Source: an uncultured virus (IMG/VR IMGVR_UViG_3300027896_004848) (taxonomy: Duplodnaviria; Heunggongvirae; Uroviricota; Caudoviricetes). Taken from it: DNA of 64,000 nt. The notes under the pieces are model-generated. The model was given only the letters and a program-made list of their open reading frames with translations, ran no database searches and was not told where the DNA came from. Position numbers and translations under genes: made by a program. The stretch is from the IMG/VR virus record IMGVR_UViG_3300027896_004848; one strand, given 5' to 3'. Shown here piece after piece: positions 4,604 through 58,786 of the stretch (position 1 is its first letter; each line of letters starts with the position of its first letter).

Positions 4604-5131
4604 ATGGCTTTTGAATTTAAAAAATTAGATATTGAAGGTTTGATTTTAATTACACCTAAGCACTACTATGACCCTCGCGGGGTATTTTTTGAGACATATA
4701 AAAAATCAGATTTTTATGAAAACGGTATCACAGAAGAATTTGTGCAAGATAACTGTTCTTATTCGATGAAGGATGTGCTACGTGGCCTACACTATCAGAA
4801 AGACCCTAAGGCGCAATCAAAACTTGTACGTTGTATAAAAGGAACAATTTGGGATGTGGCTGTAGATTTTAGACAGGATTCTCCTACCTATAAAAAATGG
4901 GTGGGTGTAAAGCTTACGTCAGAGAATGATAAGATGCTATTTATACCAAAAGGATTCTTACACGCCTTCTGTGCTTTGACTGAGGCGACTATCCATTACA
5001 AATGTACTGAGCTTTATGATCCTTCTTTAGATGCAGGTATACGTTGGGATGATCCGTCTATAGGGATTAGGTGGCCAATACAGTACCCAATTGTGTCTGA
5101 CAAAGACAAAAACTTGCCTACAGCTCCCTAG
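4604..5131 (+). CDS. rfbC: dTDP-4-dehydrorhamnose 3,5-epimerase
   Basis: DPRGVFFE, FVQDNCSYS, LRGLHYQ, QSKLVRC, DVAVD, PKGFLHAF, S.KD motifs. Confidence 0.95.
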   Translation: MAFEFKKLDIEGLILITPKHYYDPRGVFFETYKKSDFYENGITEEFVQDNCSYSMKDVLRGLHYQKDPKAQSKLVRCIKGTIWDVAVDFRQDSPTYKKWVGVKLTSENDKMLFIPKGFLHAFCALTEATIHYKCTELYDPSLDAGIRWDDPSIGIRWPIQYPIVSDKDKNLPTAP

Positions 5132-9343: not shown

Positions 9344-9994
9344 ATGGATACGAAGGGCTATATTTATCGTGAGGGCGTAGCGCCACAAACGCATACGATT
9401 ATAAGTACGAAGAATAAGATTTATGGTCAACCTGCCGGTCAAAGTGATTTTAAACAAATTGGGGTCATTGCTTCTTTTGAGCCAAGTGATAGTAGGGCTG
9501 TTGAGGCTATCTACGGTATTGGCTACGGTGACCAAGTAGCAGAGCTTATCCCAAACGTATCTGATCCTATTACCGTCAGTGTAACACGTTCGGCTTTGTA
9601 TTTGGCCTTATTGATGCAGACTTTTGGCTATAATGCTGGTGTTGATGGCTTAGTAAGAGCTTTGAAACATCATCGTTGGCCTTTTGATGTCAAACAAGAG
9701 ATTGTCTTCTCAGAACTTGATACAAAAGGTACACAAGCATCAGGAGCTGTTCAGTCAGGTAATTATAAAGCTTTATTGACTTTCTATGAGGCTTGCTGGA
9801 TGACTAGCTATAGCTGGTCTTTTGCTGCAGACACTGCTCTGGTACAAGAAAACTGTGAAATGTCTTGTTCAGATATTGTTGATGGCAAAACCAACTACCA
9901 TAACTTCTCTCAGATTGCCTTTGGGATTACCGATACTGGTAATAATCCTAATGGTGGTAAGGGCTTTTCGAGAAGATTTGCAGGAACAATCTAG
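9344..9994 (+). CDS. Tail tube-like structural protein
   Basis: AAGGAGG RBS; IGVI.SF...SR...IYGIG..AELIP, WPFD, YEACWMTSYS pattern resembling large myophage tube proteins. Confidence 0.6.
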   Translation: MDTKGYIYREGVAPQTHTIISTKNKIYGQPAGQSDFKQIGVIASFEPSDSRAVEAIYGIGYGDQVAELIPNVSDPITVSVTRSALYLALLMQTFGYNAGVDGLVRALKHHRWPFDVKQEIVFSELDTKGTQASGAVQSGNYKALLTFYEACWMTSYSWSFAADTALVQENCEMSCSDIVDGKTNYHNFSQIAFGITDTGNNPNGGKGFSRRFAGTI

Positions 9995-10473: not shown

Positions 10474-11095
10474 TTTCTTGATTAATAAAAGGTATTTCAG
10501 AAGACTCAATAAGATCAGAAGGTTCGATATAATGTTCTGGTAAGCCGTCCTCTAAGTCTGCCTGAATTACTGCTGCATTTTTAGTTTTTAAACAAGCTGA
10601 TAATAGTCCCAAGGTAAAATAAAGTTTTTGTATTAACTCATCATCTATATAGGCTATATTTTTTCTTAGTCGGGCATACAGATTTGCTAAGACTTTTAAA
10701 TCTGTCTCAGTTACGCTTATTGATTCTTTTTTACGAGTCTGCTTTTTTTTAGTCTCTTTGGGGATCTTTTTAGGTATTTCCTTAAGAATTTCTTTAGGGA
10801 TTTCCTTTTTTAAAGTAAAAACCTTGGTTTTTTTTATTTTAAGTTCGGCTCTTTTTATTGAGCGCAGTTGGTTTAAAGCAAAAGAGTCTTGTTTAGCTTT
10901 CGGTAATGTAACATAAACCGTATACGCAGCAATCCAATCTCTCACGGTATTTGGGTGTAGTGAGATAGACTCTGCAAATTTTTTTATAGTAAGATTTAGG
11001 TCTGCTTTTTTTGCCTCTAAATAAGCTTTGCCTACTAAGAGTTTTCCTTCTTTTGTAGACTTATCTGCTGTTTTTAACATTTCAATTGTTGTCAT
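10448..11095 (-). CDS. HTH DNA-binding protein
   Basis: TIKKFAESISLHPNTVRDWI helix-turn-helix; basic KEIPK repeats. Confidence 0.6.
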   Translation of the reverse strand: MTTIEMLKTADKSTKEGKLLVGKAYLEAKKADLNLTIKKFAESISLHPNTVRDWIAAYTVYVTLPKAKQDSFALNQLRSIKRAELKIKKTKVFTLKKEIPKEILKEIPKKIPKETKKKQTRKKESISVTETDLKVLANLYARLRKNIAYIDDELIQKLYFTLGLLSACLKTKNAAVIQADLEDGLPEHYIEPSDLIESSEIPFINQETKEDSEFV

Positions 11096-11195
11096 AGTAT
11101 CCTCGCTTTTTGTGCCGCAGGATTAGCATAGTGTGTCATCAAGGTCAAGCTATTTTTTATTTAAGTGTGGCTATTTGTGCCAGTATAATTTGTTT

Positions 11196-12758
11196 ATGCC
11201 TATGCTGAGTCTTTGTGTCATTTGTAAGAATGAAGAAGAAAATATAAAGAATCTTTTGGAGTCTGTCAAAGGGCCCTTATTTGATGAGATCATTATAGTA
11301 GACACAAATTCGACAGATAAGACAGTTGAAGTAGCTAGAAAGTACACTCCACACATCTATAACTTTGAATGGGTGGATGATTTTAGTGCAGCGCGTAACT
11401 ACTCTTTTAGTAAAGCTACTTGTGAGTTTGTGGGATGGCTAGATGCAGATGACGCTGTGCTTCCAAAAGACTATCAGAAGTTATTGGCTTTAAAAGAACG
11501 CCTAAATGAAGCAGATACGTGGCTTCTTAAGTATGAGTATGCCCATGATGAGCTGGGCAGGTCGATTTGTAGCTTTTATAGGGAAAGGATAGTACGCCGA
11601 TCCCTTAACCTTAAATGGCAAGAGCCCATCCATGAGTATCTGCCTCTTACTGGTATAATTAAAAAAGAGGATATAGAGATACATCATTATAAGAAACACA
11701 GTACTTCTGCTAGAAATATACCAATGCTAGAAAAATCTGTAAAAGCTAATCCGAATAGTGCTCGTAATGTTTTTTATTTAGGTAAGGAGTACATGGATAA
11801 TGGACAACTTGAAGAAGCACTCAAGACCTTAGAGAAATATGTAGATATGCCAGATGCTTGGGTAGAAAATAAGTATTCTGCTTACATCAGGCTGTCTAAT
11901 ATCATAATGCGCTTAAATAATAAGGATATAGAAAAAGCAAGAAGTATGTGCTTTGCTGCCATAAAGACTTTTCCTACTAGAATAGAGGCATACTGTAGAT
12001 TAGGAGAACTATGTTTTGATAAGAGTGATTGGGAAGAAGCGGTACATTGGTATAAAATAGCTTCTAATATGAAAAGAGACACAAAGATTTTGGATTTAAT
12101 TGAGCCGAGATATTACACATGGCTTCCTCATTTACAGCTTTGTGTAGCCTATAATAACATAGGAGAGGTCAAAAAGTCAGCCTTACATAATGAATTAGCA
12201 CACAGGTACGCCTCAGAAGATTCTAGGATGCTGAATAATAAAAGAATTTTTGAGAAGACTTTAGGTAACGATTACCCAATACCAGAAAAGATTTCTCTAA
12301 AACTTTTATTTGATAAGGATATTAATATAGGAGATTTTGAAATAATAGCATTTAAAGAAGAAAAACAGGCATTTGTTGGTAAGATTGGCTGGTGTGTAGC
12401 TAATATAATAGATGCCGGTACTATAAGGATACGTACTTTAAATATACAAAAGACCTTAAAAAATATGGGAGTAGTCTCAGAATTGTGTACATTTGAGACT
12501 GCTCAGAATTATGATTATGTTATTATAGGTAAGCTATTCTCTGAAGAGGTACTCCAACAAGTAAGACGATTAAAGGATCTCGGTAAGACTGTGCTTTGTG
12601 ACTTAAGTGAGGATATCTTAGGTTATGCTTTTGTTGATGATATTTTGAAAGAATCTGATTTAGTTGTCTGTTGTAGTAAAGAGCTTCAAAAGAAAGTAGC
12701 TAGAATTAACAGTAATGCACTTGTAATTGAGGATGCTGTTGATTATATGCTTGCTTAA
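11196..12758 (+). CDS. GT2 glycosyltransferase + TPR + N-terminal half of a GT-B domain (split GT part 1)
   Basis: LSLCVICKNEE, DFSAARN, WLDADD, IHE; TPR repeats; ends AGTIRIR...DLSED...VVCCSKEL...VIEDAVD; start placed after TATAAT. Confidence 0.85.
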   Translation: MPMLSLCVICKNEEENIKNLLESVKGPLFDEIIIVDTNSTDKTVEVARKYTPHIYNFEWVDDFSAARNYSFSKATCEFVGWLDADDAVLPKDYQKLLALKERLNEADTWLLKYEYAHDELGRSICSFYRERIVRRSLNLKWQEPIHEYLPLTGIIKKEDIEIHHYKKHSTSARNIPMLEKSVKANPNSARNVFYLGKEYMDNGQLEEALKTLEKYVDMPDAWVENKYSAYIRLSNIIMRLNNKDIEKARSMCFAAIKTFPTRIEAYCRLGELCFDKSDWEEAVHWYKIASNMKRDTKILDLIEPRYYTWLPHLQLCVAYNNIGEVKKSALHNELAHRYASEDSRMLNNKRIFEKTLGNDYPIPEKISLKLLFDKDINIGDFEIIAFKEEKQAFVGKIGWCVANIIDAGTIRIRTLNIQKTLKNMGVVSELCTFETAQNYDYVIIGKLFSEEVLQQVRRLKDLGKTVLCDLSEDILGYAFVDDILKESDLVVCCSKELQKKVARINSNALVIEDAVDYMLA

Positions 12759-12890
12759 GGGTTGGGCAGGGGTGATGTTTAGAATTGTAGGATGTAGTAT
12801 AGTAGCTGATTTTGTTTTGTTAAATTTAAATAAAATTTTTTATTTACAGCCGTCAATATGTTGCTATAGTTAAATATGTACGAGGGGGGA

Positions 12891-12924
12891 ATGTGGGCTT
12901 TGTGCTTTAGCGTAAGGCTCACAT
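12891..12924 (+). promoter_or_regulatory. Strong leader hairpin downstream of a sigma70-like promoter
   Basis: AATGTGGGCTT...AGGCTCACATT stem; TTTACA-17-TATAGT at about 12844-12872. Confidence 0.5.
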
Positions 12925-12984
12925 TGGGGGAGAGACAATCACGCTATCTAAAATACACTTTAAAAAATAATATAGGAGGAAAAA

Positions 12985-13665
12985 ATGAGAGTTGTGTTGT
13001 TGTTTTTGCTAATTGGAATTGTGTCTTGTAGTACTGCAAATCAGACTTTGAGTCCAGATGTTGTTTATATGGATGATATAGGTATTCAAGCAAACGGTTA
13101 TCAGGGAATAGGAATTCTTGCTTTACCTCAAGCATCTTCTTATGACATTAAACTTGATGCAGCTGGAAAGATAAATTTATTGGATTTTTCTAGTTGTCAC
13201 AGAACAATTATAAAACAGAAAAGTGGAAGTGGTAATATTTTTAATCCTGGGGACAAAATAGAAATAAATTATGTTCCTGCTGCGGGCATAGAAGACAATG
13301 GAAATTGTGATATAGATATAAGAACTTATAATATTCAATCTAAGAATAGTGTAGGTTATATTGTTTTTCAAAATCCAAAATACCAGCTTCCTGCTACTTT
13401 AAACTGTAATGGTTCAACTATTCAATCTCCGGGGGAATCAGTATGCTCAGCTAAACAAACTTTATATCAGACTATATCTTTTACTGTTCCTGTGAAGGTT
13501 ACTGATAAGGATGCTCAACTTTATAATCTAACAACTACAGATAATAAAGCGTTTAGATATCAGATGCCTCTTGGTACTCATAAAATAGAATTTATCGACC
13601 AAACAACTTTTAAACTTCATAGACTTGTTACTCGTGGTTTTCAACAGGCAAGGATTAATTTATAG
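12985..13665 (+). CDS. Lipoprotein of unknown function
   Basis: AGGAGG RBS, hydrophobic signal with IVSC lipobox, paired Cys. Confidence 0.65.
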   Translation: MRVVLLFLLIGIVSCSTANQTLSPDVVYMDDIGIQANGYQGIGILALPQASSYDIKLDAAGKINLLDFSSCHRTIIKQKSGSGNIFNPGDKIEINYVPAAGIEDNGNCDIDIRTYNIQSKNSVGYIVFQNPKYQLPATLNCNGSTIQSPGESVCSAKQTLYQTISFTVPVKVTDKDAQLYNLTTTDNKAFRYQMPLGTHKIEFIDQTTFKLHRLVTRGFQQARINL

Positions 13666-13673
13666 GGGGTTTT

Positions 13674-13982
13674 ATGAGTTCACTATTAGGAAATTTATTT
13701 GGAATTGGAATTAATGTAGCTGCTAAAGTAGGTGTATCAAGCGGCACAATCTGGTCTCTTGGAATAATGGTTTTTCTTAAAGTATTAGATCTAGTTATAG
13801 ATTGGAAAAACGCTTCTGATGCTCAGAAAAAAGCATATTTAGATCTTGTTATAGCTGCTCAGAATTTAGCTCCAATACCGGTGAGTATTATGCAAGATTC
13901 TGAGAGCACTTATAATCAGCTTATAAAAGAAGCTAAGGAAGCTCAGGCTGCCGCACAGGCTGCAGCAGCAAAGCCTAAATAG
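13674..13982 (+). CDS. Small membrane protein (holin-like candidate)
   Basis: One or two N-terminal TM segments, Ala/Lys-rich tail. Confidence 0.35.
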   Translation: MSSLLGNLFGIGINVAAKVGVSSGTIWSLGIMVFLKVLDLVIDWKNASDAQKKAYLDLVIAAQNLAPIPVSIMQDSESTYNQLIKEAKEAQAAAQAAAAKPK

Positions 13983-13995
13983 TTATAGGTGGCTC

Positions 13996-14203
13996 ACCGA
14001 CCTCCTAATGGCTGCTGCTGTTGGGTGATGGGTTAGAATGACTATTCCGTCGGTAATTGGTGGAAGTGCTCGCCAACTTTGGAAAAGCAGCTTGAGGCTG
14101 CCAGTAACATATTTTAGGTTGAAATGATATATACCTAATTTGATGTTGACCTAAATGTGGTTGAAGGTGATTTGGGGTTCGCACCTGAAATATAACCCCA
14201 CCA
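13996..14203 (+). ncRNA. Unassigned structured RNA upstream of tRNA-Gly
   Basis: GC-elevated gap with several helices containing G-U pairs on the + strand and a 3' H-type pseudoknot ending CCACCA. Confidence 0.55.
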
Positions 14204-14206
14204 TGT

Positions 14207-14281
14207 GCGGGAGTAGCTAAGTGGTATAGCTCAACGTTGCCAACGTTGAGGCCGTGGGTTCGAGCCCCATCTCCCGCTCCA
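14207..14281 (+). tRNA. tRNA-Gly(GCC)
   Basis: Acceptor GCGGGAG/CTCCCGC, anticodon arm CAACG-TTGCCAA-CGTTG, T loop TTCGAGC, encoded CCA. Confidence 0.97.
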
Positions 14282-14594
14282 TTTTTAGGAGAGATTATGC
14301 TTTCGGAAAAAGAAATGATAAATCAAATAGCAGACGCATTTACAAAATTAGAAGAAAAGGATGAGCGCGTATCTAAAATTTATAGTTCTAATTTAATAGA
14401 TAATATAATGGCAGCCGCTAAAAGCATAGATGCACTAGATATACCCTACAAGTTAGGTGACTGCAATATGGTATGGGGAGCTTATATAATTCCTGATGCC
14501 TCTGTTCCCAAGAATATTATTAGAGTACGTTCTGATTCTGGTTATTTCTTTGATTTTAAAATCAAAGAATCAGATTAAGAGGAGGTGAAATAAA

Positions 14595-14714
14595 ATGAAA
14601 AAATTACTTATTCTGATCTGCTTAGTTATTATGTTTGGGTGTATAACAACAGAGAAGCATGGTTATTTTTGGTGTGCCAAGAAAATACAAGGCACAAATA
14701 TACTCTGTCCCTAA
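14595..14714 (+). CDS. 39-aa lipoprotein (not in ORF track)
   Basis: AGGAGGTG RBS; MKKLLILICLVIMFGC lipobox then ITTEKHGYFWCAKKIQGTNILCP. Confidence 0.65.
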   Translation: MKKLLILICLVIMFGCITTEKHGYFWCAKKIQGTNILCP

Positions 14715-15904
14715 AAAAGGAGATATATATGGAAATAATTATTAAAGGAAAAAGAAGAGAAGGAAAAACAACAATAGCTGCATTATTATTTAATCTTTTT
14801 AAAGGAAATAATAATGTAGCTGTTCACGACAGTTGTGAGGAGAGTGATATTTATATTGGTGATGTTTCTATTCCTGAAAAAATTAAAAATAAAAACATTA
14901 TAATTACAACAATTGATGAAGACCAGCCCAACATTCCTGATTCTTCTACAAATTTTAAAAAATGGTTTGATACTTTTATGGATGAACCAAGAAAAACCAA
15001 TGCCTTTGCATATAGAGAAAAAGACCAAGAAGAATTTCAATTTGCCCAGAAAATTAAAGATACCATAATTTATAAAAAAATAGAATGTGGTAATATAAAA
15101 AAGTGTGAAGAAGGTTTTTATATTGAAAGCCTAGAACTTGAAAATGGTAAAAAATTAATTGCAGATAATAATAAAATTTTAATTTTGGAGGAATTATGAT
15201 GGATAAACTGAGAGTTTGAAGATGGTTACTATTCTGTTCAAATTTAAGGAGGATTTAATATGGCTAAAGAGTCATCGGTATACGGTAGTCCACCAGCAAT
15301 AAAAAAACTAATAAAGTTATATGCCTATATTGATGGTGATTTTAGATTGGCTTTTTCTCCTAAGCTTGAATCTGCTGAAAGGTATAATTCAAGGTATCCA
15401 AGTCTTGATACTGTGCAGGAAGTTGAAATGACAGATCCAGATTATGTCTACCCAAATGGAAGAAAACCAGATATTAAATATAGTATGATAATAAAGGTAA
15501 AATAAAAAATAAATTTGTCGAGGGAGGGTCTATCATGGAAACTCAGAAAATTTGTGAAAAAAAACTTAAATGGCCAATTAATACTATTTGGGAGAGGAAA
15601 TATAATATAACAAAAGGTTCGTTAGATATGAGTTATAGTTTAATACAAAATATTAAAGGAGATTGGCAAACTTCTTGGACGGGAGTAATAAGTTATCTTA
15701 CAGCGGAAAATGGCATTGCTTTTTCATTTGATAAAGTAAAAAATATATTTTTTGATTCTCCTAATTTATTTAAATTAATTAAAGATACGATAGAGGAAAA
15801 ACGATTAGAACAGATTTTACTAGAATTAGCTGAAGTAGAAAAAGAGAGTAATGAAAAAATAACTAAAGCTATGATAAGTATTGAAATAAAAGGAAGTACT
15901 ATAA

Positions 15905-16576
15905 ATGCTTAAGGTATATTGGTTCGGTTACGGCGGTCACAGCTGGATGGCTGAAAAGCTTCGTAATTTAATTGAAGATGAACTAGGTATGCAGCTAGTG
16001 ACTATTCATGAGCATCCTAATGCTGATGTCAAATGGAATTTAGAGACTGTATTTGAGGAATTAAAAAAAGCTGATATAATAATAGTCTCTGCAAATTATA
16101 AAAGACAGCCTTGTAAATCTAATAATAAACTCACACAAGCAATGGCTCTCGGTAAGCCTATAGTGTGCTCCCCACTTCCAGCTTATCAAGATATTGTAAA
16201 GCATGGCATAAATTCTTTTATATTATTAAACGACTCTGAAGAAGAATGGCGGAAGTACCTAACAATCCTACGAGATAATCCTGATGTTAGGCAGAAGATG
16301 GGCGTGGAGGCTTTAAAAACAGCTAGAAATTATACACAGGAAGTGGCAGCCGAAAGCTGGCTTAAAGCCCTATCACAAATAGAAAAGAAAGTAGATCCTA
16401 AGGCTATTGACGTGATAATACCCACAAAGGGTAATCCAGAGATTTTAGCAGAGTGTCTGAAATCTTTTGAAAACTCTAGTATGAAAGAAGATATTTATAT
16501 TATCGATAACGGTAATGACATCACCGAGGAATCTCTTAGTTATTTGAAAGTGCCTATTAAGATTGTGGAGGTATAA
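15905..16576 (+). CDS. C-terminal half of GT-B domain + start of a GT2 domain (split GT part 2)
   Basis: KVYWFGY, KSNNKLTQAMALGKPIV.S..PAY, then IDVIIPTKG...IYIIDNG. Confidence 0.85.
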   Translation: MLKVYWFGYGGHSWMAEKLRNLIEDELGMQLVTIHEHPNADVKWNLETVFEELKKADIIIVSANYKRQPCKSNNKLTQAMALGKPIVCSPLPAYQDIVKHGINSFILLNDSEEEWRKYLTILRDNPDVRQKMGVEALKTARNYTQEVAAESWLKALSQIEKKVDPKAIDVIIPTKGNPEILAECLKSFENSSMKEDIYIIDNGNDITEESLSYLKVPIKIVEV

Positions 16577-16577
16577 G

Positions 16578-16856
16578 ATGAGCTTTTTAGAAAAGGTAGC
16601 TAAGAAATTAAAAAAAGATAAAGTTGAAAAGGGGCAGGTACGCAACACTGTCTTACGAAAAATTAAAGAGCTAAAGCAGATAGCTAAAGTCTTAGAACAA
16701 TCTATTAAAATCAAAGAGGAAGAGTTACCAGAATATAAGGGTACTCCGAAAGCAAAACAGTTAAAAAAACAAATAAAAATAATGTTAAATGGGCTTATCT
16801 ATGTACAAGAGTCTATTAAACGGTTGGAAGGATATAGGGAAGTGACTACCTCATGA
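16578..16856 (+). CDS. Basic helical protein inserted within the GT2 domain
   Basis: GGAGGT RBS; MSFLEKVAKKL; stop overlaps next start (ATGA). Confidence 0.6.
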   Translation: MSFLEKVAKKLKKDKVEKGQVRNTVLRKIKELKQIAKVLEQSIKIKEEELPEYKGTPKAKQLKKQIKIMLNGLIYVQESIKRLEGYREVTTS

Positions 16857-18568
16857 TAAGGTCTATTACAATTTTAAAACCCAAAAAGTCTCTTAATTTC
16901 AGTGAAAGCTGTAACTTAGGTATAAAAAGTTCCAAGAACAAATATATATTTGTCGCAAATGATGATATTATCATAACGAAAAACAGTATTGAAGAGCTGG
17001 TCAAAAACACAGATGATGACACTATTACTGGGCCAGACTCTAACTGCAATCTAGGATTTCAGACTGATTATGCTTATACTGTAAAAGACGTTAAGCTTGT
17101 TCCTGCTATGACATTAGATCAGGTGAAGCACATAATACCCGATATCTATAATATAAAGCCAGTAAAACAGGATGTGCTAAAAAGAGACTGGCTGGCTTTT
17201 TTTGCTACAATGTTTACTAGGAAATGTTTTAATGATGTCGGTTTTATGGATGAAAGTTTTATCTATGATCGCGAAGATCTTGATTGGTGCATTGCGGCAA
17301 AGAAACTTGGGAAGAATTTTAAGCAGATTTTTGGGAGTTATTGTTTTCATTTTGGCGGGATATCCAGAAAAAGAAAGCATCAAGAATTGGGACTTAAGCA
17401 CGATTTAGATCAGGAGCATAACTATTTATATTACGCAAACAAGTATGGTATAAAAGACAAGCCTATTTTAGGCATATTTTGTAGTGACGCTTGGGAGCCT
17501 TGGGATGAAAATTCTTTGAATTCATCTGTTTCAAATAAGCCTAGCGGAATAGGCGGATCTGAGACACAGGTTATTTATTTATCACGGGAGTTTTCTAAAT
17601 TAGGATATAAGGTAAAGATATTTAATAAGTGTAAAGAACAGCATTTTGATAAGGGCTATGATGTGGAGTATATTCCTTTTCAAAATTTTGGAGAATATTC
17701 AAAGAAGTTGGAGTATGACTATTTTATAGCTAGTAGATATTTAGATTGTTTTGATATACCTTTTAAAAGTAAGCGTAATTTCGTGATGGCACACGATGTT
17801 TTTCTTATCATGAATGGAAAGCACCAACATGACGTAAAACAAGATAGGGTAGAAAAATACTTTTGTTTGAGTAATCGTCATAAGCAGTTTTTTAGTGAAT
17901 ATCATAATATTCCTATGGATAAGATATTGATGACATCCAACGGCTTAGATTTTTCAAGATTTGAAAATAAAAATATTAAAAAAGATCCTAATAGGCTTAT
18001 ATACAGCTCATCACCAGACAGGGGATTAGAGTACATGATGCCTGTACTAGATCAAGTCTACAAACAACATCCTCAAATGAGACTGCATGTCTATTATGGT
18101 TTTGAGAATTTCAGAGATCAGGATTATATTACAAAGATAAAAGCTGAAATGACTAAGAGGTCTTATATTACCTATCATGGCCGGGTTGGGCAGGATAGGC
18201 TAGCAGAAGAGTTTTTAAGAAGCGGTATTTGGAGTTACTTTTCTGGATTTAGTGAGACATTTTCAATTACGGCCCTTGAGGCCATGCAAAGCGGGGCATG
18301 CGTGCTTTCTTCTGCGTATTGGGGTTTGATTGACACGGTGGGCAATGCAGGTATTTTAATTGACTTACATGACAACTACAACAATATACACACAGATGCT
18401 TATAAAAATAAATGGAAAGAAGAATGTCTTAGATTGTTAAAAGATCAAAAATATGCTGATTCTTGGCGGGCTAAGGGCCTAGAAAGAGTCAAAAAATTTT
18501 CATGGACTGCTGTGACAGAACAATGGTCAGATCTGTTTTTAAAAGGCACATGGAAGGAAATCCAATAG
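16853..18568 (+). CDS. Remainder of GT2 domain + complete GT4-like domain (split GT part 3)
   Basis: NFSESCNLG, VANDD, EDLD, HFGG; then GIGGSE, YSSSPDRGL, ETFSITALEAM. Confidence 0.9.
   Translation: MIRSITILKPKKSLNFSESCNLGIKSSKNKYIFVANDDIIITKNSIEELVKNTDDDTITGPDSNCNLGFQTDYAYTVKDVKLVPAMTLDQVKHIIPDIYNIKPVKQDVLKRDWLAFFATMFTRKCFNDVGFMDESFIYDREDLDWCIAAKKLGKNFKQIFGSYCFHFGGISRKRKHQELGLKHDLDQEHNYLYYANKYGIKDKPILGIFCSDAWEPWDENSLNSSVSNKPSGIGGSETQVIYLSREFSKLGYKVKIFNKCKEQHFDKGYDVEYIPFQNFGEYSKKLEYDYFIASRYLDCFDIPFKSKRNFVMAHDVFLIMNGKHQHDVKQDRVEKYFCLSNRHKQFFSEYHNIPMDKILMTSNGLDFSRFENKNIKKDPNRLIYSSSPDRGLEYMMPVLDQVYKQHPQMRLHVYYGFENFRDQDYITKIKAEMTKRSYITYHGRVGQDRLAEEFLRSGIWSYFSGFSETFSITALEAMQSGACVLSSAYWGLIDTVGNAGILIDLHDNYNNIHTDAYKNKWKEECLRLLKDQKYADSWRAKGLERVKKFSWTAVTEQWSDLFLKGTWKEIQ
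18551..18564 (+). repeat. Putative attL core
   Basis: TGGAAGGAAATCCA encoding WKEIQ at the GT 3' end. Confidence 0.7.
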
Positions 18569-20826: not shown

Positions 20827-22764
20827 ATGAAGGGATTATACGAAAGAAGAACCAAAACGGGTGAAAAAAGATATCGTGGAAAATATAATAGTAAACACAC
20901 ACCTTGGACTACTTATGAAGAAGCTTGTAGACTGTTAGCGATACTCCAGACAGAAGGTATCCAGCGTAGAAAATCAAGAAAAGAAAAAATAAAGCAATTA
21001 AAAGCAAATATAAAAGTTAAAAAAGGCATAGAAAGTTGGGTAAACTTTAGGGGAGAAACATTTTATAGGGCAAGAACTACTGTAAATAGAAAGGCTATAC
21101 AATCAGATTGGACAACTTCTTATGAAGAAGCCTGTAACCAATTAGAAAATGCAAAGTCTAAAAAAATCTATGCTTCTGAAAAACAAAAAGAAGCTATAAA
21201 ACAATTGGAACTTGATGAACAGAAATACTTAGAAAAGCATTCAGAACCTAAAGAACTTTTAAATATTCCTGTTGATGTAAACGGAAAAATAAAAGGTATT
21301 GAAGAAAGAACTACAAAACAGGGTGAAACTAAATATAGGGCAGCTACTTTTGTTAATGGAAAGCGTGTTAGAACAGCTTGGACTTCTTCTTATGAAGAAG
21401 CCTATAAACAATTTATTAAAATGAGTTCATTTAGAGTAGCTGTACCACATAAAAACAGATATACAGTAAATGATAAAGATATAAGAATGTCAGAATTTTT
21501 AGAGTTATACTTTGAGTATATAAAAACAAGATATAAACCAAACACTCAAAGAAATATACGCTCAGTATTAACTAAAATTTATAGGCATAAAATGGACATG
21601 CCTCTTAGTGAAATATCAAAAGTCGATGTAATGCCTCACCTAAGAGTTTTAGTAAAAAAGATATCAGCAGCTCGTAATATTTCGGTTTTAAAAATGTTAC
21701 AGGAATATGCTAAAGCTTTTGAATATCCTTACACAATAAATATTGCAAGATTGTGGGAAGAAATCCGCAACTATGCTGCATCTGATGAAAAAATAAAATT
21801 TATTTCAAAAGAAGAAGTAGCTGAAATTTTTAAGTATATAGATGATAGTATTGTAAAAATTAAAGCTAGAAAAAAGTTTACAATTCATGCTGAGAAAAGC
21901 ATTAAAGACTATCAGCATTTTAAATTGGCAATAAAGATAGCTTTATATGGGGGTCTGCGTAGAAGTGAAGTTTTGGGATTACGCTACAAAGATATTCAAT
22001 TAGATAAAAGAATTATTAATGTTATTTCAGTTCAAAATTTAGATGGCACATACAAAATTGGAACTAAAAATGGAAAGACCAGGATTGTTCCAATGGCAGA
22101 TCATGTAAAATTAGAACTACAAGAATTTATGAATAAAGATTACAAGGCAGACAGTTACATTTTTGAAGGATATAATTATCATTTTATTCAAGTCAGAATG
22201 GATGCTCTTAATGTAGCTGTAAAGTTTAGAGATACATATGGCTTCCATACTTTCAGACATACTTTTGCTAGTTTATTCTTTAAGTTAAAAGGCACATCTC
22301 CCGAAGCTCTTGTAGATTTACAACAGATATTAGGTCATCAGCATATCAATACAACTATGCACTATGTCCATGTTTATAAAACTTACACAGGAAATATTTT
22401 AGATGGTCTAAGCTATGGTGAAGCAGAAAAGATAGAAGCTCAGAGAAAAGAAGAAGAAAAAGAAACTCTCATTAGTGCAACAGTAGCTTTAAAAATATTA
22501 TCTGACCAAATCAGAGTTGAAACACCTTATGACAAGGATCTCATTCCTGTATATGAAGGAATGGGGGGAGTATTTAATAAAGAAAGTAGATGTTGGATAT
22601 TTGATTTAAGCACAGAGAAAAATATTAGGAATATTTTAAAAGAAAGATTTGGATATGAGCCTACTGAAACGATAGAAGATAAAATAAAAGAAATGCAAAA
22701 ACAGTTGGCGACTTTAATAAGTATTGCTCAATCTAATAATGGTTTGTCTAATAAAATATCATAG
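20827..22764 (+). CDS. Tyrosine integrase with three N-terminal arm-binding repeats and a C-terminal extra domain
   Basis: GLRRSE, TKNGK, HTFRH, LGH, TTMHY catalytic set; 3x KG..ER.TK.GE..YR...WT.SYEEA-like repeats. Confidence 0.92.
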   Translation: MKGLYERRTKTGEKRYRGKYNSKHTPWTTYEEACRLLAILQTEGIQRRKSRKEKIKQLKANIKVKKGIESWVNFRGETFYRARTTVNRKAIQSDWTTSYEEACNQLENAKSKKIYASEKQKEAIKQLELDEQKYLEKHSEPKELLNIPVDVNGKIKGIEERTTKQGETKYRAATFVNGKRVRTAWTSSYEEAYKQFIKMSSFRVAVPHKNRYTVNDKDIRMSEFLELYFEYIKTRYKPNTQRNIRSVLTKIYRHKMDMPLSEISKVDVMPHLRVLVKKISAARNISVLKMLQEYAKAFEYPYTINIARLWEEIRNYAASDEKIKFISKEEVAEIFKYIDDSIVKIKARKKFTIHAEKSIKDYQHFKLAIKIALYGGLRRSEVLGLRYKDIQLDKRIINVISVQNLDGTYKIGTKNGKTRIVPMADHVKLELQEFMNKDYKADSYIFEGYNYHFIQVRMDALNVAVKFRDTYGFHTFRHTFASLFFKLKGTSPEALVDLQQILGHQHINTTMHYVHVYKTYTGNILDGLSYGEAEKIEAQRKEEEKETLISATVALKILSDQIRVETPYDKDLIPVYEGMGGVFNKESRCWIFDLSTEKNIRNILKERFGYEPTETIEDKIKEMQKQLATLISIAQSNNGLSNKIS

Positions 22765-23160
22765 GAGGTATTATGAAAACAATAAGGGTATTTTTTAAAT
22801 GGTTTCGTTCATTAAAGGAAAAATGCAATTCCAAAGTCTATAAGAGAGGTAAGGTGATTTTCTTAACTGATAGTATACCTTCTGAAAAAATAGAAGAATT
22901 TGTTATTTCTGTCCGTAAAGATAGTGGTCAGCGTGTAGATTGGCATTATATGGGTGGCCGTGCAGTTATTAAATATTTGGGTGATAAAAATAAAGTAATA
23001 GAATCTCTTAAAAAATTTAGAAACATTCATGATGAAGCCTATGAAAAAATGATGATAGAGTCCCCTGTGCCCACTACAAAAGAATATATTACCAAAAGAA
23101 TTAATGGATATTGGGATATGCTGAAATAGAATTTTGGAGATAATAAAAAAACTTGACATA

Positions 23161-23225
23161 ATACCCCCGATGCGTTTCAATAATTCATGTAGGTTTATAT
23201 AAATTAGAAACATATCGGGGGGTAT
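23161..23225. promoter_or_regulatory. Long inverted repeat over the parA promoter region and RBS
   Basis: ATACCCCCGATGCGTTTC...GAAACATATCGGGGGGTAT, just after TTGACA at 23153. Confidence 0.6.
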
Positions 23226-23230
23226 CGTTC

Positions 23231-24196
23231 ATGCAAGTCGCTATATCATCCACAGAAATAGGGAGTATTTTAGATATTACTCCACAAGGACTAGCTCAAT
23301 ACATTAGAGGTCTGGAATTAGATAAGGAAAAAGAAGAGTTTTTTGGGGGTAAAACAAGGTATCTTACACACGCAGGAGCTAGAAAACTTTTTACTGCCAG
23401 AGGTTTTAAATACCCAAAAAAGAATATTTGTTTTTATGCTAATAAAGGTGGCGTTGGAAAAACAACCTTAGCTATTAATATGGCTTATAGGGCTGCACAA
23501 TTAGGCGCAAGGGTATTACTTTTTGACCTAGATATGCAAGCCAATGCTACTAATACCTTTATAAGTCATATCCCAAAGCATGTTTTTTATGATGTTATTA
23601 CTAAGAATACAACCGTTGATAAAGTGATAATTCCATTAGATAATGGTTTAGATATTCTTCCAAGCTCTCTTACAAATACTCGCCTAGAGCTTGAATTAAT
23701 TACAAAACAATTCAACCAAGAAAGCTATTTTAAAAGCATCTTAGAACCAATCAGAGATAACTATGACTTGGTAATTATTGATTTGGCTCCAAGTCTTTCC
23801 CATGCTTCTTATTTGGCAGTTCTGGCTTCGGATCTCGTCTATATCCCTGCAACACCAGATATCTATTCAGCACAAGGAATTGATATAACCTGGGGAACAA
23901 TACAGGATATTGAAAAGAATTTTCCAAACAAGAAATTTGAAGTCAATGTTGTGTGGAATAAGTATAACAGTAAAGAAACAAACTCTCTTAAATTTATTAC
24001 TGACATGAAGAAATATGAGGGTATGGGAATAGCCCCTGTTATTATTAGAGTAGATGCTGCTTTAAAGAATGCTCAAGCTGAAGGAAAAACAACCTTTGAG
24101 TTTAAGAGCAAAGGCAATTCTCTTGAGGATATTGATGTATTGACTAAAGACATGCTTGGTATTGATTCTTTCTTTAATAAGAAGGCAAATGCATGA
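23231..24196 (+). CDS. parA: ParA ATPase with N-terminal HTH
   Basis: KGGVGKTT, DLDMQANAT, IIDLAP; N-terminal HTH extension. Confidence 0.9.
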   Translation: MQVAISSTEIGSILDITPQGLAQYIRGLELDKEKEEFFGGKTRYLTHAGARKLFTARGFKYPKKNICFYANKGGVGKTTLAINMAYRAAQLGARVLLFDLDMQANATNTFISHIPKHVFYDVITKNTTVDKVIIPLDNGLDILPSSLTNTRLELELITKQFNQESYFKSILEPIRDNYDLVIIDLAPSLSHASYLAVLASDLVYIPATPDIYSAQGIDITWGTIQDIEKNFPNKKFEVNVVWNKYNSKETNSLKFITDMKKYEGMGIAPVIIRVDAALKNAQAEGKTTFEFKSKGNSLEDIDVLTKDMLGIDSFFNKKANA

Positions 24197-25299
24197 ATAA
24201 GAGTAAAACGCTTTGCCTTGCTGATTTAATGAAGAAAGAAACTAAAGGCATAAACCCTATGAAACATAGAGAAGGTTTGGATAAACCTAGTTCTTCTTTT
24301 TTATTCAAGGATAAACAGGTAACAAACGGGCAACAAACAGATAACAATATAGATAGCAATCAGATAACAAACGGGCAACAAACAGATAACAATGAAAACT
24401 TGGAAAAAGAGAAACAGATAACACAAGGGATAACCATTAGGCAACAAACAGATAACAAACGGATAACAGATTTTAAGGTAGACGCACTTGTTGGGCATGA
24501 GAAAAAATTACTTTTTTTTATTAAAGAAAAATGCAGTTTAATAGGTGATTTAATCACGCCTCCAATTACAAATGAGCTAACAAGAGAAGCCTTAGAGTGT
24601 AGTATGGATACAGCTAAGATGATTGTTTATAGGTTAGTAAAAAAGGGTTTTATTAAAAGACATTCCAGCAAAACAGGTCGAGGTGGCTGGACTAGATTCT
24701 CTATATCAAAAGATTTATACCAAACCTTAAACAGGCAACAAACGGATAACAAACAGGGTACACAAGGGATAACACAAGGGATAACAAGCCCCTCTAGTAG
24801 TAGTAGTCTTAATATATTAAATAATACTACTACTGAAGGATGGTCTGAAATAGATATTGCCCCTCTTGAACAATTTGGCTTTACTGACACCCATATTAAA
24901 CAAATAATCAGTTCCAATAAGAGCAACCCTACACTTTTACAAAAGTCTATTGAGTATTTTGTTTATATGCTGGAAAACAAAACTCAAGATATCAGAGAAC
25001 CTATAGGATTTTTTATGTCTATTATGAGAAATGAAGGCATGATAGCGAAGCCATTAGGCTATAAAACCAAACTTGAAAGAAATCTTGAGATTCTTGATCA
25101 AGAAAGAAAAGCTGAACAGGATAAAGTTAAAAAATATATTGAAGAAAATTATGAAACTTTAACAAGGCATCCTAGTATAATAGCAGAGAAGGAAAAATTA
25201 TCTCAAAATGGGTTTATGTCGGAAGACTCCAGGGCATATTTGGAAACCATGAAAGGGATACTGTTTGATAGGATACAAAAAGGCGAATTACAAGCGTAG
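24193..25299 (+). CDS. Replication initiator-like (wHTH) protein with intragenic iterons
   Basis: Central wHTH (AKMIVYRLVKKGFIKR...GRGGW) flanked by QQTDN repeats, SSSSS linker, coupled to parA. Confidence 0.7.
   Translation: MNKSKTLCLADLMKKETKGINPMKHREGLDKPSSSFLFKDKQVTNGQQTDNNIDSNQITNGQQTDNNENLEKEKQITQGITIRQQTDNKRITDFKVDALVGHEKKLLFFIKEKCSLIGDLITPPITNELTREALECSMDTAKMIVYRLVKKGFIKRHSSKTGRGGWTRFSISKDLYQTLNRQQTDNKQGTQGITQGITSPSSSSSLNILNNTTTEGWSEIDIAPLEQFGFTDTHIKQIISSNKSNPTLLQKSIEYFVYMLENKTQDIREPIGFFMSIMRNEGMIAKPLGYKTKLERNLEILDQERKAEQDKVKKYIEENYETLTRHPSIIAEKEKLSQNGFMSEDSRAYLETMKGILFDRIQKGELQA
24311..24787 (+). repeat. Iteron-like 11-bp repeats in two clusters
   Basis: G(G/A)(C/T)AACAAAC(A/G) units; 29-mer duplicated at 24320-24348 and 24365-24393; second cluster about 24730-24787. 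Confidence 0.75.
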
Positions 25300-30322: not shown

Positions 30323-30820
30323 ATGTCGGAGACCGGTTTAGCTAGGGGCTCTTTATCAAAGTGGTGTAAGGGGTACGGAATAGATTTGGGCTTTGGGGGG
30401 GATAAGATAGTACCTCATGCTATTGCTGTTGATTTAGCTGTACCGTATACTAAGACTGGGATGGATCCTGTACAGCTTGGTGGGGATGCTAGAGATCTTT
30501 ATTGGTTTAAAGATGGTGTTTTAGGGTGGGTCTACTCAAGCCACCTTTTAGAGGACTTCACGGACACTACTTCAGTTTTAGCTGAATGGACAAGGGTCTT
30601 AAAAAAAGATGGTTTTTTGATTCTATATTTACCTGATGAGCAAGCTTATAGAGCGTACTGCCAGAAAAATGGGCAAGGTAGAAACCCAAATCACAAAAAT
30701 GAAAATTTTAATGCTGAGTGGGTTAAGAAATGCGCAGAGTCCTTAGGTAATCTGGAATTAGTACACTGTTCAGAAATAGTAAACGGTTATTCTTTTGAAA
30801 TTGTTTTTAAAAAGAAATAG
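30323..30820 (+). CDS. Methyltransferase (type 11-like)
   Basis: DLGFGG, VYSSHLLE, EWTRVLKKDG.L.LYLPD. Confidence 0.8.
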   Translation: MSETGLARGSLSKWCKGYGIDLGFGGDKIVPHAIAVDLAVPYTKTGMDPVQLGGDARDLYWFKDGVLGWVYSSHLLEDFTDTTSVLAEWTRVLKKDGFLILYLPDEQAYRAYCQKNGQGRNPNHKNENFNAEWVKKCAESLGNLELVHCSEIVNGYSFEIVFKKK

Positions 30821-30822
30821 TG

Positions 30823-31743
30823 CTAATTTAAAATATCTTTTAAATAAAAGATAAATCTGTCTGCCATAAACTGCTTGCAGCAATTTATGTGCTCTAGGTA
30901 ACAGCTTTCAAAATTCCAAAAATGTGCTAGCCACTTAGACTCACAAGAAATACAAGGTATGTCAGGACAAATAGGATAGGTCTTTCCTATTTTTCTATTA
31001 GGTATCCTATATTTTGGATCTACTGAAGTATAACCACAAATTATAGGTGTCTTTGTTGTACCTGCTAAATGTATTGGCCCACTGTCTATACCGCAGACGA
31101 CTTTAGCTTTTCCTATTATTGTAGCAAGCTCAGGTATAGTTGTTTTATTTCTTAGATCTATTCCAAAATTATCAATGTTATCAGGTAAAGAGGATTCTGT
31201 CTTAAGATGCTCTGCTAAATCTTTATCTGTTTTTCCTATAAAAACAGGAGTATACCCTTTTGATTTAATATATTCTGCTGTCTCCAGCATATAGTCTGCG
31301 TGCCAACATCTTGTTTTATCACGATAAGAGGAAATTAAAATTACTGACTTTGAAAAATCAATGTTAAATTTGGAGACATCTACCTCAATTAAGGGGACGT
31401 AATCTAACTGCTCTAAGGGTATGATTCTATCTGTCAATTTTATAGACGCAAACTGAGAAAGGTTCATGTGCTTTGGGGTATTTCTGATGATCTTTCCATT
31501 AGCTTTGGTATTTAAAAGAGCAACAGCTTCTTTATTAGTGAGGCCCCAAGGCTTATCAAAATCTCTGAATTTATCATCTGGTACAAAGTGCAGTATGGGG
31601 CGAAATACTTGCTTAGCGGTGACTATATAGGTATCTGTTTTGTGATGATAGTGGTCTATCATCCACTTTATAACAGGAGCGGTAGCTATTACATCTCCTA
31701 AAGCATAAGAATTTAATGAATAGCAAATAGAGTTTAAAACCAC
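30823..31743 (-). CDS. GT9 (heptosyltransferase-like) glycosyltransferase
   Basis: ALGDVI..P, DLRNKTTI.EL, GIDSGPIHLAG. Confidence 0.85.
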   Translation of the reverse strand: MVLNSICYSLNSYALGDVIATAPVIKWMIDHYHHKTDTYIVTAKQVFRPILHFVPDDKFRDFDKPWGLTNKEAVALLNTKANGKIIRNTPKHMNLSQFASIKLTDRIIPLEQLDYVPLIEVDVSKFNIDFSKSVILISSYRDKTRCWHADYMLETAEYIKSKGYTPVFIGKTDKDLAEHLKTESSLPDNIDNFGIDLRNKTTIPELATIIGKAKVVCGIDSGPIHLAGTTKTPIICGYTSVDPKYRIPNRKIGKTYPICPDIPCISCESKWLAHFWNFESCYLEHINCCKQFMADRFIFYLKDILN

Positions 31744-31815
31744 TCTGTTATGATACTGTCGATATTTTAAAAACTATACTTGAAAATATAAGCAGTATTT
31801 CGTATAATTTCTTTT

Positions 31816-32463
31816 ATGGTAGATCTCTTATTAAAAGATGACAGAATCGACAGGCTTCCTTTGCCAAGGGTGACTGTTGTGGTAGCAGACTGTATTGACT
31901 TTCGTCGAGCTAGAAGGACTTTACAACATTGTGTAAATCTTTGCTCATTTGGTGAGGCTAAGTTTTTTACACATTTTGAAAAACCTGATGATCCTTATAT
32001 TGTCTCTATTGAAAAATTGGATTCTGTACACAAGTATTCAGATTTTATGATCAAAAAGATGGTAAACTATATAAAAACAGATTTTGTACTTACCATACAG
32101 CATGACGGTTTTGTAGTGAATACTAAAATGTGGACAGATGAGTTTTTAAATTATGATTATATAGGGGCCCCTTGGCATCAGTCTCAGTTAAAATATAGAG
32201 ATAATCTAGATTATAGGGTAGGTAATGGAGGGTTTAGTCTTCAGTCTCGTAAGTTTTTAGAATTTTTAAGAGATGATCCAAAATTTGATAACTGCTATCC
32301 TGCAGGGGATGCTATTATTTGTCAGAAATATAGGCCTTATTTAGAAGAGCATGGGTTTAAATTTGCCCCTGTGGATCTAGCCCATAAATTTAGTTGTGAG
32401 AATTATATTTGGAATGGGGCTTTTGGGCAGCATGCTTATTTTATGCTGCACCCTTTACGGTAG
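31816..32463 (+). CDS. DUF5672-like GT-A-type protein
   Basis: QHDGFV, FL.YDYIGAPW, VGNGGFSL.S, A.KFS.E. Confidence 0.75.
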   Translation: MVDLLLKDDRIDRLPLPRVTVVVADCIDFRRARRTLQHCVNLCSFGEAKFFTHFEKPDDPYIVSIEKLDSVHKYSDFMIKKMVNYIKTDFVLTIQHDGFVVNTKMWTDEFLNYDYIGAPWHQSQLKYRDNLDYRVGNGGFSLQSRKFLEFLRDDPKFDNCYPAGDAIICQKYRPYLEEHGFKFAPVDLAHKFSCENYIWNGAFGQHAYFMLHPLR

Positions 32464-33230: not shown

Positions 33231-33938
33231 ATGACGAAGCAAGCTGTTGAATTTATGTTATTTATTTTAAATCAGTCTCGTAACTCTCTAGAAAACTATT
33301 TATTAAAACACTCCTTCAAAAATATAAATAGCTGCCTTGTCTTAGGTAATGGCCCTATAGTGCTTACTGCACATATGGATACTATAAATACTAAGGCTTT
33401 AGAAGCCAGTGAAGATCTGTTTTTTCCTTTACCTTTGCTGGTAGAGCGTGGGGTAATACGTAAACAGAACGAAATAATAACTAGCCCCATGCAACGGTTA
33501 ATGGTCTTAGGCGGTGATGATAGATGTGGTATATTTCTGGCGCTGATGCTTTATAAGACTCATCCTGATTGGTATACTGTGTTTTTTACAGATGAAGAGG
33601 AACGTGGAGGTACTTTTAATACAGCTAATTATGCCCCAAGGAGCCTCTGGTATCATAAATTTGTATTATGTCTAGATACCCATGCTAAGTCGGTATTCCC
33701 ATATCATGACCCTTTTACTCATATTTTTAATAGATTAAATGCTAAGTACGACTATAGATATAGAGCACATAGCCTTTCAAACGTACAGCATATGGCCGGT
33801 GCTTATGGTATTAATCTTGGTGTTGGGTATCATAAAGAGCACACTTCCTATGAGCACATTGTACTAAAAGAGCTTTATGAAGCTTATCTGTATTCCTTAG
33901 AACTATCAGACATTATTATAAATAAAAAGGCTACTTAA
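33231..33938 (+). CDS. M20/M28-like zinc peptidase
   Basis: AHMDT, GGDDRCG, DEEERGG, GVGY..EHT. Confidence 0.8.
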   Translation: MTKQAVEFMLFILNQSRNSLENYLLKHSFKNINSCLVLGNGPIVLTAHMDTINTKALEASEDLFFPLPLLVERGVIRKQNEIITSPMQRLMVLGGDDRCGIFLALMLYKTHPDWYTVFFTDEEERGGTFNTANYAPRSLWYHKFVLCLDTHAKSVFPYHDPFTHIFNRLNAKYDYRYRAHSLSNVQHMAGAYGINLGVGYHKEHTSYEHIVLKELYEAYLYSLELSDIIINKKAT

Positions 33939-34557
33939 AAAACTCGACTCTATTACGGCCTTTTGCTTTAGCTTGGTATAGTGCTTTATCTGCTTCTGAT
34001 TCTGTATGACCTACTCCAATAGAAGCACCTAAAGTAATTTCAGAAAGCTCATCTTTTACAGATTTTTCACCCTTATAATGGTCTGAGATTTTTTGTTTTT
34101 GAATGCTTTCCAAAATTCTATGGGCTATTTTTACTCCAGTCGCTATAGATACATCTTTTATATGTACCACAAACTCATCACCACCAAATCTAGTCACTTT
34201 TGTCTCATCTTTTCCTCTAAGGACAGCTTTTATACCTGCTGCTAGAGCTTCTATAGCTGCATGGCCAGCTGCATGACCATGTGTGTCATTGACTTTTTTA
34301 ATTCCATCGCCGTCAATGTACAGGTACATACCTTTTTCTTTCTCTAGCTGTTCAAAATGTTGTTTATGTAAAAGGCCTGTCATAGGGTCTTGACTGATTA
34401 CTCCTATCAGTTTCTTTATATACTTAAGATACTCTACATCACGTTTAGAAGTAGTATGTTCAAGGTCTTTGGGAATTTTGGGGATTTCATAGGTGTGTTC
34501 TGGCTCAGCAGCACTAAGTTTGGTCATCACCTTTTTAAGAATATTTAGTCTATTCAT
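33931..34557 (-). CDS. Stand-alone GGDEF-domain nucleotide cyclase (atypical specificity site)
   Basis: DPMTGL, IDGDGIKKVNDTHGH, RFGGDEF, SIG, ADKALYQAK..GRN. Confidence 0.92.
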   Translation of the reverse strand: MNRLNILKKVMTKLSAAEPEHTYEIPKIPKDLEHTTSKRDVEYLKYIKKLIGVISQDPMTGLLHKQHFEQLEKEKGMYLYIDGDGIKKVNDTHGHAAGHAAIEALAAGIKAVLRGKDETKVTRFGGDEFVVHIKDVSIATGVKIAHRILESIQKQKISDHYKGEKSVKDELSEITLGASIGVGHTESEADKALYQAKAKGRNRVEFFK

Positions 34558-58719: not shown

Positions 58720-58772
58720 ACCCGCCACGCCTCTAGCTCTTTTGGGCTATGCGCATTTTGGGCGGGTTTTTT
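58720..58772 (+). terminator. Intrinsic terminator with nested inner stems upstream of rfbA
   Basis: ACCCGCC/GGCGGGT stem followed by a T run; inner TAGCTC/GGGCTA stem. Confidence 0.6.
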
Positions 58773-58786
58773 GTGAAGGAGAGAAC

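Follow-up and report, generated by a model that had tools for sequence, protein, structure and literature searches.

Phage enzymes encoded in pieces are known from a few replication proteins. The closest tested case is NrdA of Aeh1, in which, as described in PMC3045599, the ancestral enzyme is made as two separately translated halves (NrdA-a and NrdA-b) from intact open reading frames (ORFs) with a gene between them; the halves build a composite active site with no splicing of RNA or protein, and the short, oppositely charged tails at the new termini have been proposed as an aid to assembly. T4 gp39/gp60 and the split gene 43 are of the same kind, and split-intein fractured genes, which PMC3045599 mentions, likewise have the ORFs of one phage enzyme set apart by other genes. 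Among glycosyltransferases (GTs), the GT-B enzymes Alg14/Alg13 and EpsE/EpsF are cut between their N- and C-terminal domains into two genes, both chains being needed, and re-fused relatives and relatives with the reversed order have been seen (PMC8993221). The subject of the present analysis is a locus of an uncultured tailed virus (IMG/VR record IMGVR_UViG_3300027896_004848), the analysed DNA of which, 64,000 nucleotides long and called the window in the following, holds three genes (parts 1, 2 and 3; Table 1) that together encode one multidomain GT and are separated by a first gap of 3146 nt, which lies between parts 1 and 2, and by a 92-aa gene between parts 2 and 3.

Like the genes in pieces, the three parts are intact ORFs under selection, free of introns and inteins, and tile contiguous homologues; a free-standing homing endonuclease gene in the break, another mark of this kind, was not found in the gaps of the window. 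The locus differs from Aeh1 NrdA in encoding a GT, in having two breaks, in that assembly is deduced here from sequence comparison, in that the gaps hold ordinary, exchangeable genes (up to seven ORFs and a tRNA) rather than a homing endonuclease, and in that the new ends resemble a duplicated strand beta3, not foreign tails. Alg13/14 offers no precedent for the second break, which lies within a GT-A fold. Genes-in-pieces phage enzymes and split GT-B enzymes are already known; what appears to be new is the clade-wide split of a GT-A fold, with a duplicated strand and freely exchanged gap genes. No report of a natural split within a GT-A fold was found in the literature searched, most subscription journals being outside the reach of that search.

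The first-pass annotation of the locus, made from the sequence alone, had proposed one enzyme in three intact ORFs with their own starts, the last two flanking the 92-aa gene, all of which was found where it had been placed, and had suggested looking for contiguous homologues. These exist: the whole array, consisting of a GT2 domain with tetratricopeptide repeats (TPR), a GT-B enzyme, a second GT2 and a GT4, is found in single ORFs, and the pieces tile it. Among 56 longer homologues of part 2, four contain all three parts, 14 parts 1 and 2, 37 parts 2 and 3 (36 of the 37 beginning at the part 2 start) and one is a permutation. In 31 viral contigs (not counting 11 loci that repeat contigs already included, and with L001 handled separately), the array is one ORF in 18, one of which is cut at the contig edge while another, L011, is split within its GT4; it is split between the GT-B halves in 11, with 0-8 intervening genes, which amount to seven distinct arrangements because two trios are near-identical; a permuted array and an array beginning with the GT-B C-half account for the other two contigs. 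Stand-alone relatives are found for part 2 (P0057, L015, L016 and L017) and, 35 in number, for part 3. Part 2 alone as a query gave no match in the viral contigs, and the part 2 alignment retrieved the L001 contig only; none of 128 pattern matches in the scan of genome contigs was a relative, and annotated phage records gave distant GT4 matches only.

Other members of the family are broken or arranged differently. In L013 (5529-12247) and L036-L038 the same gene family is in four pieces with breaks at other sites, leaving a free 145-aa GT-B N-domain and a GT2/GT4 break; in L011 (11083) an independent split, at which stop and start overlap as TAATG, divides the terminal GT4 in the linker between its two domains; and in the permutations L058 (3825-7166), P0017 and P0072 either the GT-B C-half, GT2, GT4 and GT2-TPR follow one another in one ORF or the GT-B C-half stands before the N-half.

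The enzyme had been described as split mid-domain at both breaks, which holds for the second only; the first separates the two Rossmann domains of the GT-B enzyme. Single GT-B proteins of ~300 aa are tiled by the part 1 end and the part 2 start, where Pfam places the GT-B C-half, with the linker alone missing, and eight stand-alone relatives of part 1 terminate 1-8 residues past the same ED motif. The GT-B halves occur in reversed order in P0017 and P0072, and the N-half is a free 145-aa gene in L013 and L036-38; only assembly at the protein level accounts for both arrangements in a simple way. The likeness to Alg14/Alg13 and EpsE/EpsF concerns the place of the cut and the re-fused or reversed relatives. 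The matches here are to Glycos_transf_1 / Glyco_trans_1_4 and GT4-type structures rather than to GT1/GT28, and each half is fused to other enzymes; because the sequence family differs, this GT-B enzyme may work like Alg13/14 but is not a member of that group. A BLASTP comparison of the GT-B N-half with the GT4 N-domain gave no match.

The second break is an unusual cut, running through a predicted sugar-binding site. In SpsA-type GT-A enzymes the motifs are xxPx of beta1, the Asp of beta2, DxD after beta4, the EDxD base and a C-terminal His, and the beta1 motif and beta2 Asp on one side and NDD, EDxD and HxGG on the other both line the nucleotide-sugar pocket. The GT2 fold had been proposed to begin in part 2 and to resume in part 3. 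The Pfam model Glycos_transf_2 bears this out, its positions 2-48 matching the part 2 end and 57-107 the part 3 start. A contiguous homologue is modelled confidently as a GT-A domain, with a predicted local distance difference test (pLDDT) score of 91.6, and the break falls after strand beta3, leaving the beta1 motif and beta2 Asp on part 2 and NDD, EDxD and HxGG on part 3; the motif set is complete only when both parts are taken together, and the nucleotide-binding Rossmann core, instead of lying in a single chain, is divided after beta3.

The position of this cut is fixed. All 15 part 2-type proteins end 21-24 residues past the beta2 Asp, the part 1+2 fusions stop exactly at the part 2 end point, and, among the 36 part 3 proteins that are closest (that of the window included), 34 have NFSES at position 15-16. 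The motifs are retained on both sides (DxxxPTK, 15/15; NDD, 34/34; EDxD, 31/34; HxGG, 34/34). By a column-based count the two split ends total 38 residues as against 27 in 29/41 contiguous homologues, and strand beta3 is therefore present twice. The first 14 residues of part 3 carry a charge of +4.0 (+1.4 in the contiguous equivalent) and the beta1-beta3 unit of part 2 one of -4.5 (-1.6), in both cases among related sequences. When part 3 is modelled by itself, its first 15 residues lack secondary structure, as a missing partner would lead one to expect. The strong conservation of both new ends, the basic start of part 3 and the invariant PTKN of the split clade (contiguous forms mostly have PTY(K/N)N) would also suit GT2 halves that have become a docking module linking the GT-B and GT4 enzymes, with a rebuilt GT2 site that is inactive or weak. 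This is unlikely in view of the retained NDD, EDxD and HxGG motifs (31-34 of 34) and of the GT2 C-part, which is conserved at least as well as the GT4 domain (55-73% identity).

Selection was assessed by comparing the window with two to seven relatives for each fragment, a test that the first-pass annotation had called for. In every fragment, the 57-residue GT2 front included, the proportion of non-synonymous differences (pN, 0.15-0.44) is lower than that of synonymous ones (pS, 0.64-0.96), which indicates purifying selection; the 92-aa gene is also conserved at the protein level. Decaying fragments, or a failure to complement structurally together with the lack of a contiguous homologue, had been named as grounds for giving up the idea of a divided enzyme; the fragments are not decaying, and contiguous homologues exist. 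In favour of an assembly artefact, the window's own contigs do come from one sample, but contigs of the run X1, possibly the source sample, span without differences the part 1 end (10500-14878) and the whole junction of part 2, the 92-aa gene and part 3 (14857-17087), so that mis-assembly is unlikely; furthermore, identical break points recur in dozens of independent proteins, and protein identity is held at 38-78% while synonymous sites are saturated. Decaying remnants or an assembly artefact can be set aside with hardly any reservation: as judged from the sequences, the split is real and old.

In a tree of the GT-B C-domain alone, from which the columns of the trait itself are thus excluded, the proteins with a split GT2 group in a single clade (21 of 37 rows; support 99/92), the sister of which consists of ten part 2+3 fusions (100/97) chosen by the author from a larger group; a quicker tree of 152 rows recovers the same clade, with a support of 97 in the Shimodaira-Hasegawa-like approximate likelihood ratio test (SH-aLRT). 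Three-piece members (the window, L015, L016, P0057 and L017) diverge basally within the clade without forming one group (p of the approximately unbiased test, p-AU, 0.028), and the two subgroups with fused parts 1 and 2 have unrelated linkers. Taken with the sister group, in which the GT-B enzyme is split, the simplest history would be one split of the GT-B enzyme first and one of the GT2 second, after which parts 1 and 2 would have fused again at least twice.

How the pieces come together had been left open between reassembly of separately translated fragments and a gene or transcript made whole at short repeats, through excision of DNA or joining of RNA. Both repeats lie in frame where they had been described, ATGCTT at 12747 and 15905 and CTATTA at 16554 and 16863, and the CTATTA join would give a spacing of 29 residues, near the 27 of 29/41 contiguous homologues; this near-normal value follows from the duplication of beta3. 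Their frequency, however, is no more than chance: the + strand of the window contains the two hexamers 40 and 45 times, the best in-frame match of the ends has a mean of 5.55 nt within 11 loci and of 5.49 nt in 110 cross-locus pairs, and 43% of the latter have an in-frame match of at least 6 nt. The CTATTA positions are unconserved, only 0-3 of the six bases matching in ten relatives. The ATGCTT join would leave 10 residues between the Asp and Trp landmarks, as against 20-30 in 58/58 fused homologues, and thus delete at least 10 linker residues. The residues that rejoining would remove (part 3 positions 1, 2 and 4; part 2 position 219) are conserved in at least 90% of relatives. In L001 the GT2 is split with overlapping stop and start, and there is therefore nothing to excise, and in L021 one of the gap genes is antisense.

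Known elements give no better account. A programmed DNA excision element has its recombinase within the insert and conserved flanking repeats; such an element was rejected, as the gaps contain no recombinase by Pfam (the integrase of the window sits outside, at 20827-22764) and no conserved repeats. A group I or II intron or ribosomal bypass was rejected as well, since Rfam reports no intron, whether in the window or across 11 related loci, and the length and content of the gaps vary freely. Split-intein fracture was rejected because no intein half lies at any break; the inteins of relatives are ordinary cis inteins elsewhere in the gene (L017), the intein motif (Cys/Ser start, His-Asn end) was not found at the termini of 24 split relatives, and Pfam finds no intein in the three parts or in seven scanned gap ORFs. 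The earlier remark that intein and intron hallmarks are lacking thus stands. X1 contigs show no joint at either proposed junction, which is not counted as evidence, contigs being prone to drop rare variants and X1 being only possibly the source sample; the three joints that X1 does show lie elsewhere and have short sides. Covalent rejoining, by RNA splicing or trans-splicing, by ribosomal bypass or by DNA excision at the repeats, is accordingly very improbable, and the proposal of DNA or RNA joining is not supported.

Reassembly from separately translated fragments remains as the likely mechanism, in the light of the contiguous homologues, the recurrent fixed breaks and selection. The three chains quite probably assemble non-covalently, part 2 being a two-sided adapter, and the locus would specify a four-enzyme glycan assembly line (GT2-TPR, GT-B, GT2, GT4) made as three separately translated chains. 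The N-terminal domain of part 2 would pair with the terminal GT-B N-domain of part 1 in the fashion of Alg13/Alg14, while its beta1-beta3 unit would dock on the GT2 remainder of part 3 to give a nucleotide-sugar pocket from two chains; the spare beta3 and the opposite net charges at the new ends would probably aid docking. Once a break was tolerated, the gap could be filled by ordinary phage genes. We would give about an even chance to a more specific and wider picture, in which the pocket of a natural GT-A enzyme is built from two polypeptides, the beta1-beta3 unit of part 2 being clamped by beta4 and the duplicated basic beta3 of part 3, part 2 serves as the adapter for a line of three chains and four active sites, and the modules, which split, re-fuse and permute, are exchangeable between co-infecting phages and vary the glycans of the virion.

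Independent action of the pieces, alone or with other partners (e.g. another GT2 front of phage or host), would make them domains that parted after fission. Parts 1 (GT2-TPR) and 3 (GT4) do each have a complete catalytic domain, and the window contains additional genes of glycosyltransferase type. By the known chemistry of GT-A and GT-B enzymes, however, half-domains cannot act alone; here they are under the same selection as whole domains and co-occur in all ten informative loci. Indeed, of 21 metagenome loci, ten reach the end of part 2 and all ten carry it, eight start within gap genes, two start within part 3 and one is a weak unrelated match. Independent pieces are hence a poor candidate, slightly poorer than the docking module.

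Several observations weigh against non-covalent assembly as outlined, or limit it. Support for chain binding and for GT2 activity is all comparative; the stretch after the beta2 Asp is not shifted in charge (-1.7 vs -1.9), and the acidic and basic bias is not independent, the sequences being related. The basal branching behind the order of re-fusion is modestly supported (92/76, 90/78), no homing endonuclease lies in either gap of the window as a cause of the breaks, and the substrate is deduced from the likeness to GmaR and SunS and from gene neighbours only.

As to the substrate, phage GTs have been reported to act on DNA, on host surfaces, or on the capsid and tail tube (PMC12619734). GmaR glycosylates flagellin (PMC9638930) and, like SunS, has the GT2-then-TPR order of part 1. 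The GT domain of GmaR is the top PDB match of the part 1 GT2 (E 2e-26); part 1 differs from GmaR and SunS in its score, which at 55 bits is well short of the 350 bits of the SunS family cut-off, in the lack of an antirepressor domain and in the GT-B half attached to it. Weak PDB matches of the GT-B and of the second GT2 include streptococcal 4w6q and 5hea. The latter two we take to be enzymes that extend the glycans of adhesins. The gene of a tube-like virion protein (9344-9994) stands upstream of part 1, at a distance of 1.2 kb, and such a gene is upstream also in L001 and L017. Because of the GmaR/SunS likeness, the adhesin-type matches, the tube-like neighbour and the reported phage roles, glycosylation of a structural protein of the phage is the likeliest function, and we lean, if only somewhat, towards it.

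The gaps are variable in content. In ten informative relatives the second gap measures -4 to 996 nt and holds 0-2 genes from several unrelated families; L020, L021 and L032, which are truncated loci, have at least three gap genes, that of L021 on the opposite strand being 699 aa long. In L014, L016 and L028 this gap is occupied by homologues of the 92-aa gene; elsewhere among the relatives it contains different genes or none. The 92-aa gene belongs to no recognized family (Atlas feature scores do not exceed 0.80 and structure matches are to a generic helical hairpin; one Pfam match, at E 0.067, was dismissed). Recurrent gap genes of the clade (L017:8988-9431, L022:938-1417, L032:699-1127) are of three kinds, a ~150-aa Cys-rich acidic protein, a 2H-phosphoesterase-like one (weak Pfam match) and a ~140-aa protein.

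Scanned ORFs of the first gap, i.e. all but the 39-aa ORF at 14595-14714, gave no endonuclease, recombinase or intein family match, and no homing endonuclease was found in either gap of the window or in six gap genes of close relatives. Mobile elements do hit the same gene in relatives: L017 has an intein, L027 an HNH domain in frame, and L013 free HNH genes at two of its breaks. The name HNH is applied to the L013 genes only, because two phage-like gap genes in L010 and L036 gave no Pfam match at 1e-4. Insertion of an endonuclease gene, later replaced by other cargo, is a plausible origin of the breaks, for which Aeh1 nrdA and T4 gene 60 offer a parallel (PMC2988022). The L013 genes stand free and overlap the two breaks, with no intron found there by Rfam. 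In L027 (2878-5106), L031, P0216 and P0227, relatives of part 3, a ~170-aa HNH domain lies in frame between GT2 and GT4, with no intein match; it may be a fusion that was retained, or belong to an intron whose ORF is in frame.

With this locus, genes in pieces, hitherto a matter of a few enzymes of phage replication, extend to glycosyltransferases. A single gene family that records fission, re-fusion and permutation makes a clean case of a multidomain enzyme becoming a complex. A naturally tolerated cut in a GT-A fold would, furthermore, lend itself directly to the design of split-enzyme reporters and to the modular synthesis of glycans. Annotation pipelines will label such pieces as pseudogenes or partial domains.

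Table 1. Features of the divided glycosyltransferase locus (nucleotide positions refer to the window; aa positions to the respective part).
Feature	Position	Strand	Description	Basis
Part 1	11196..12758	+	520 aa, intact ORF	
Part 1, GT2 domain	aa 1-165		nearest solved relatives GmaR, SunS	Pfam; PDB sequence search
Part 1, TPR	about aa 170-355			Pfam
Part 1, GT-B N-terminal Rossmann domain	aa 396-515, nt 12381-12740			alignment to single ~300-aa GT-B proteins
Non-coding spacer 3' of part 1	12750..12984	+	stop-codon hairpin 12750-12770; promoter-like site 12843-12870	consensus scan; fold z -2.0
Gap 1 cargo	12985..15912	+	ORFs of 226, 102, 93, about 39, 156, 81 and 125 aa	
tRNA-Gly(GCC) in gap 1	14207-14281	+		Rfam reports tRNA-Gly alone
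Part 2	15905..16576	+	223 aa, intact ORF	
Part 2, GT-B C-terminal domain	aa 1-157			Pfam; Atlas structure matches across residues 1-160
Part 2, GT2 front	aa 167-223, nt 16403-16573		first beta-alpha-beta-alpha-beta unit of second GT2	alignment to contiguous homologues
92-aa gene between parts 2 and 3	16578..16856	+	basic helical protein	
Part 3	16853..18568	+	571 aa, intact ORF	
Part 3, GT2 remainder	aa 1-200		second beta3 copy, then NDD, EDxD and HxGG motifs	Pfam; motif counts
Part 3, GT4-type GT-B domain	aa 203-571		complete	Pfam; AlphaFold model pLDDT 90, GT-B fold matches

The last ORF of the first gap overlaps the part 2 start by 8 nt, and the stop of the 92-aa gene overlaps the part 3 start (ATGA). 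A GC-richer, hairpin-rich non-coding stretch at 13980-14206, right before the tRNA-Gly gene, has no Rfam match (fold z -1.9); the folds of this and of the other non-coding spacer are borderline (z -1.9 and -2.0), and promoter-like sites are not enriched in the consensus scan (32, as against 33.1 in shuffles).

The window is part of the genome of a large tailed phage and encodes a terminase large subunit, a portal, a head protease, a clamp and a clamp loader; among annotated phages, the portal is closest (26-40% identity) to those of an uncultured 485-kb phage, Tunturi_5 and Bacillus phage G. Also encoded are an RmlC that passes the family cut-off and an RmlA-like nucleotidyltransferase that does not, along with further genes of glycosyltransferase type; the RmlC and RmlA-like genes, a GT9, a methyltransferase and a DUF5672 gene make up a dispersed sugar-modification kit (4604-5131, 58700-59551, 30323-32463). 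The tyrosine integrase gene adjoins those of a ParA-type ATPase and a 368-aa protein (20827-25299), and a GGDEF-domain gene lies at 33931-34557; the integrase, ParA and GGDEF genes hint at a temperate or plasmid-like stage. The terminase large subunit gene (47400-50492) carries a LAGLIDADG intein.

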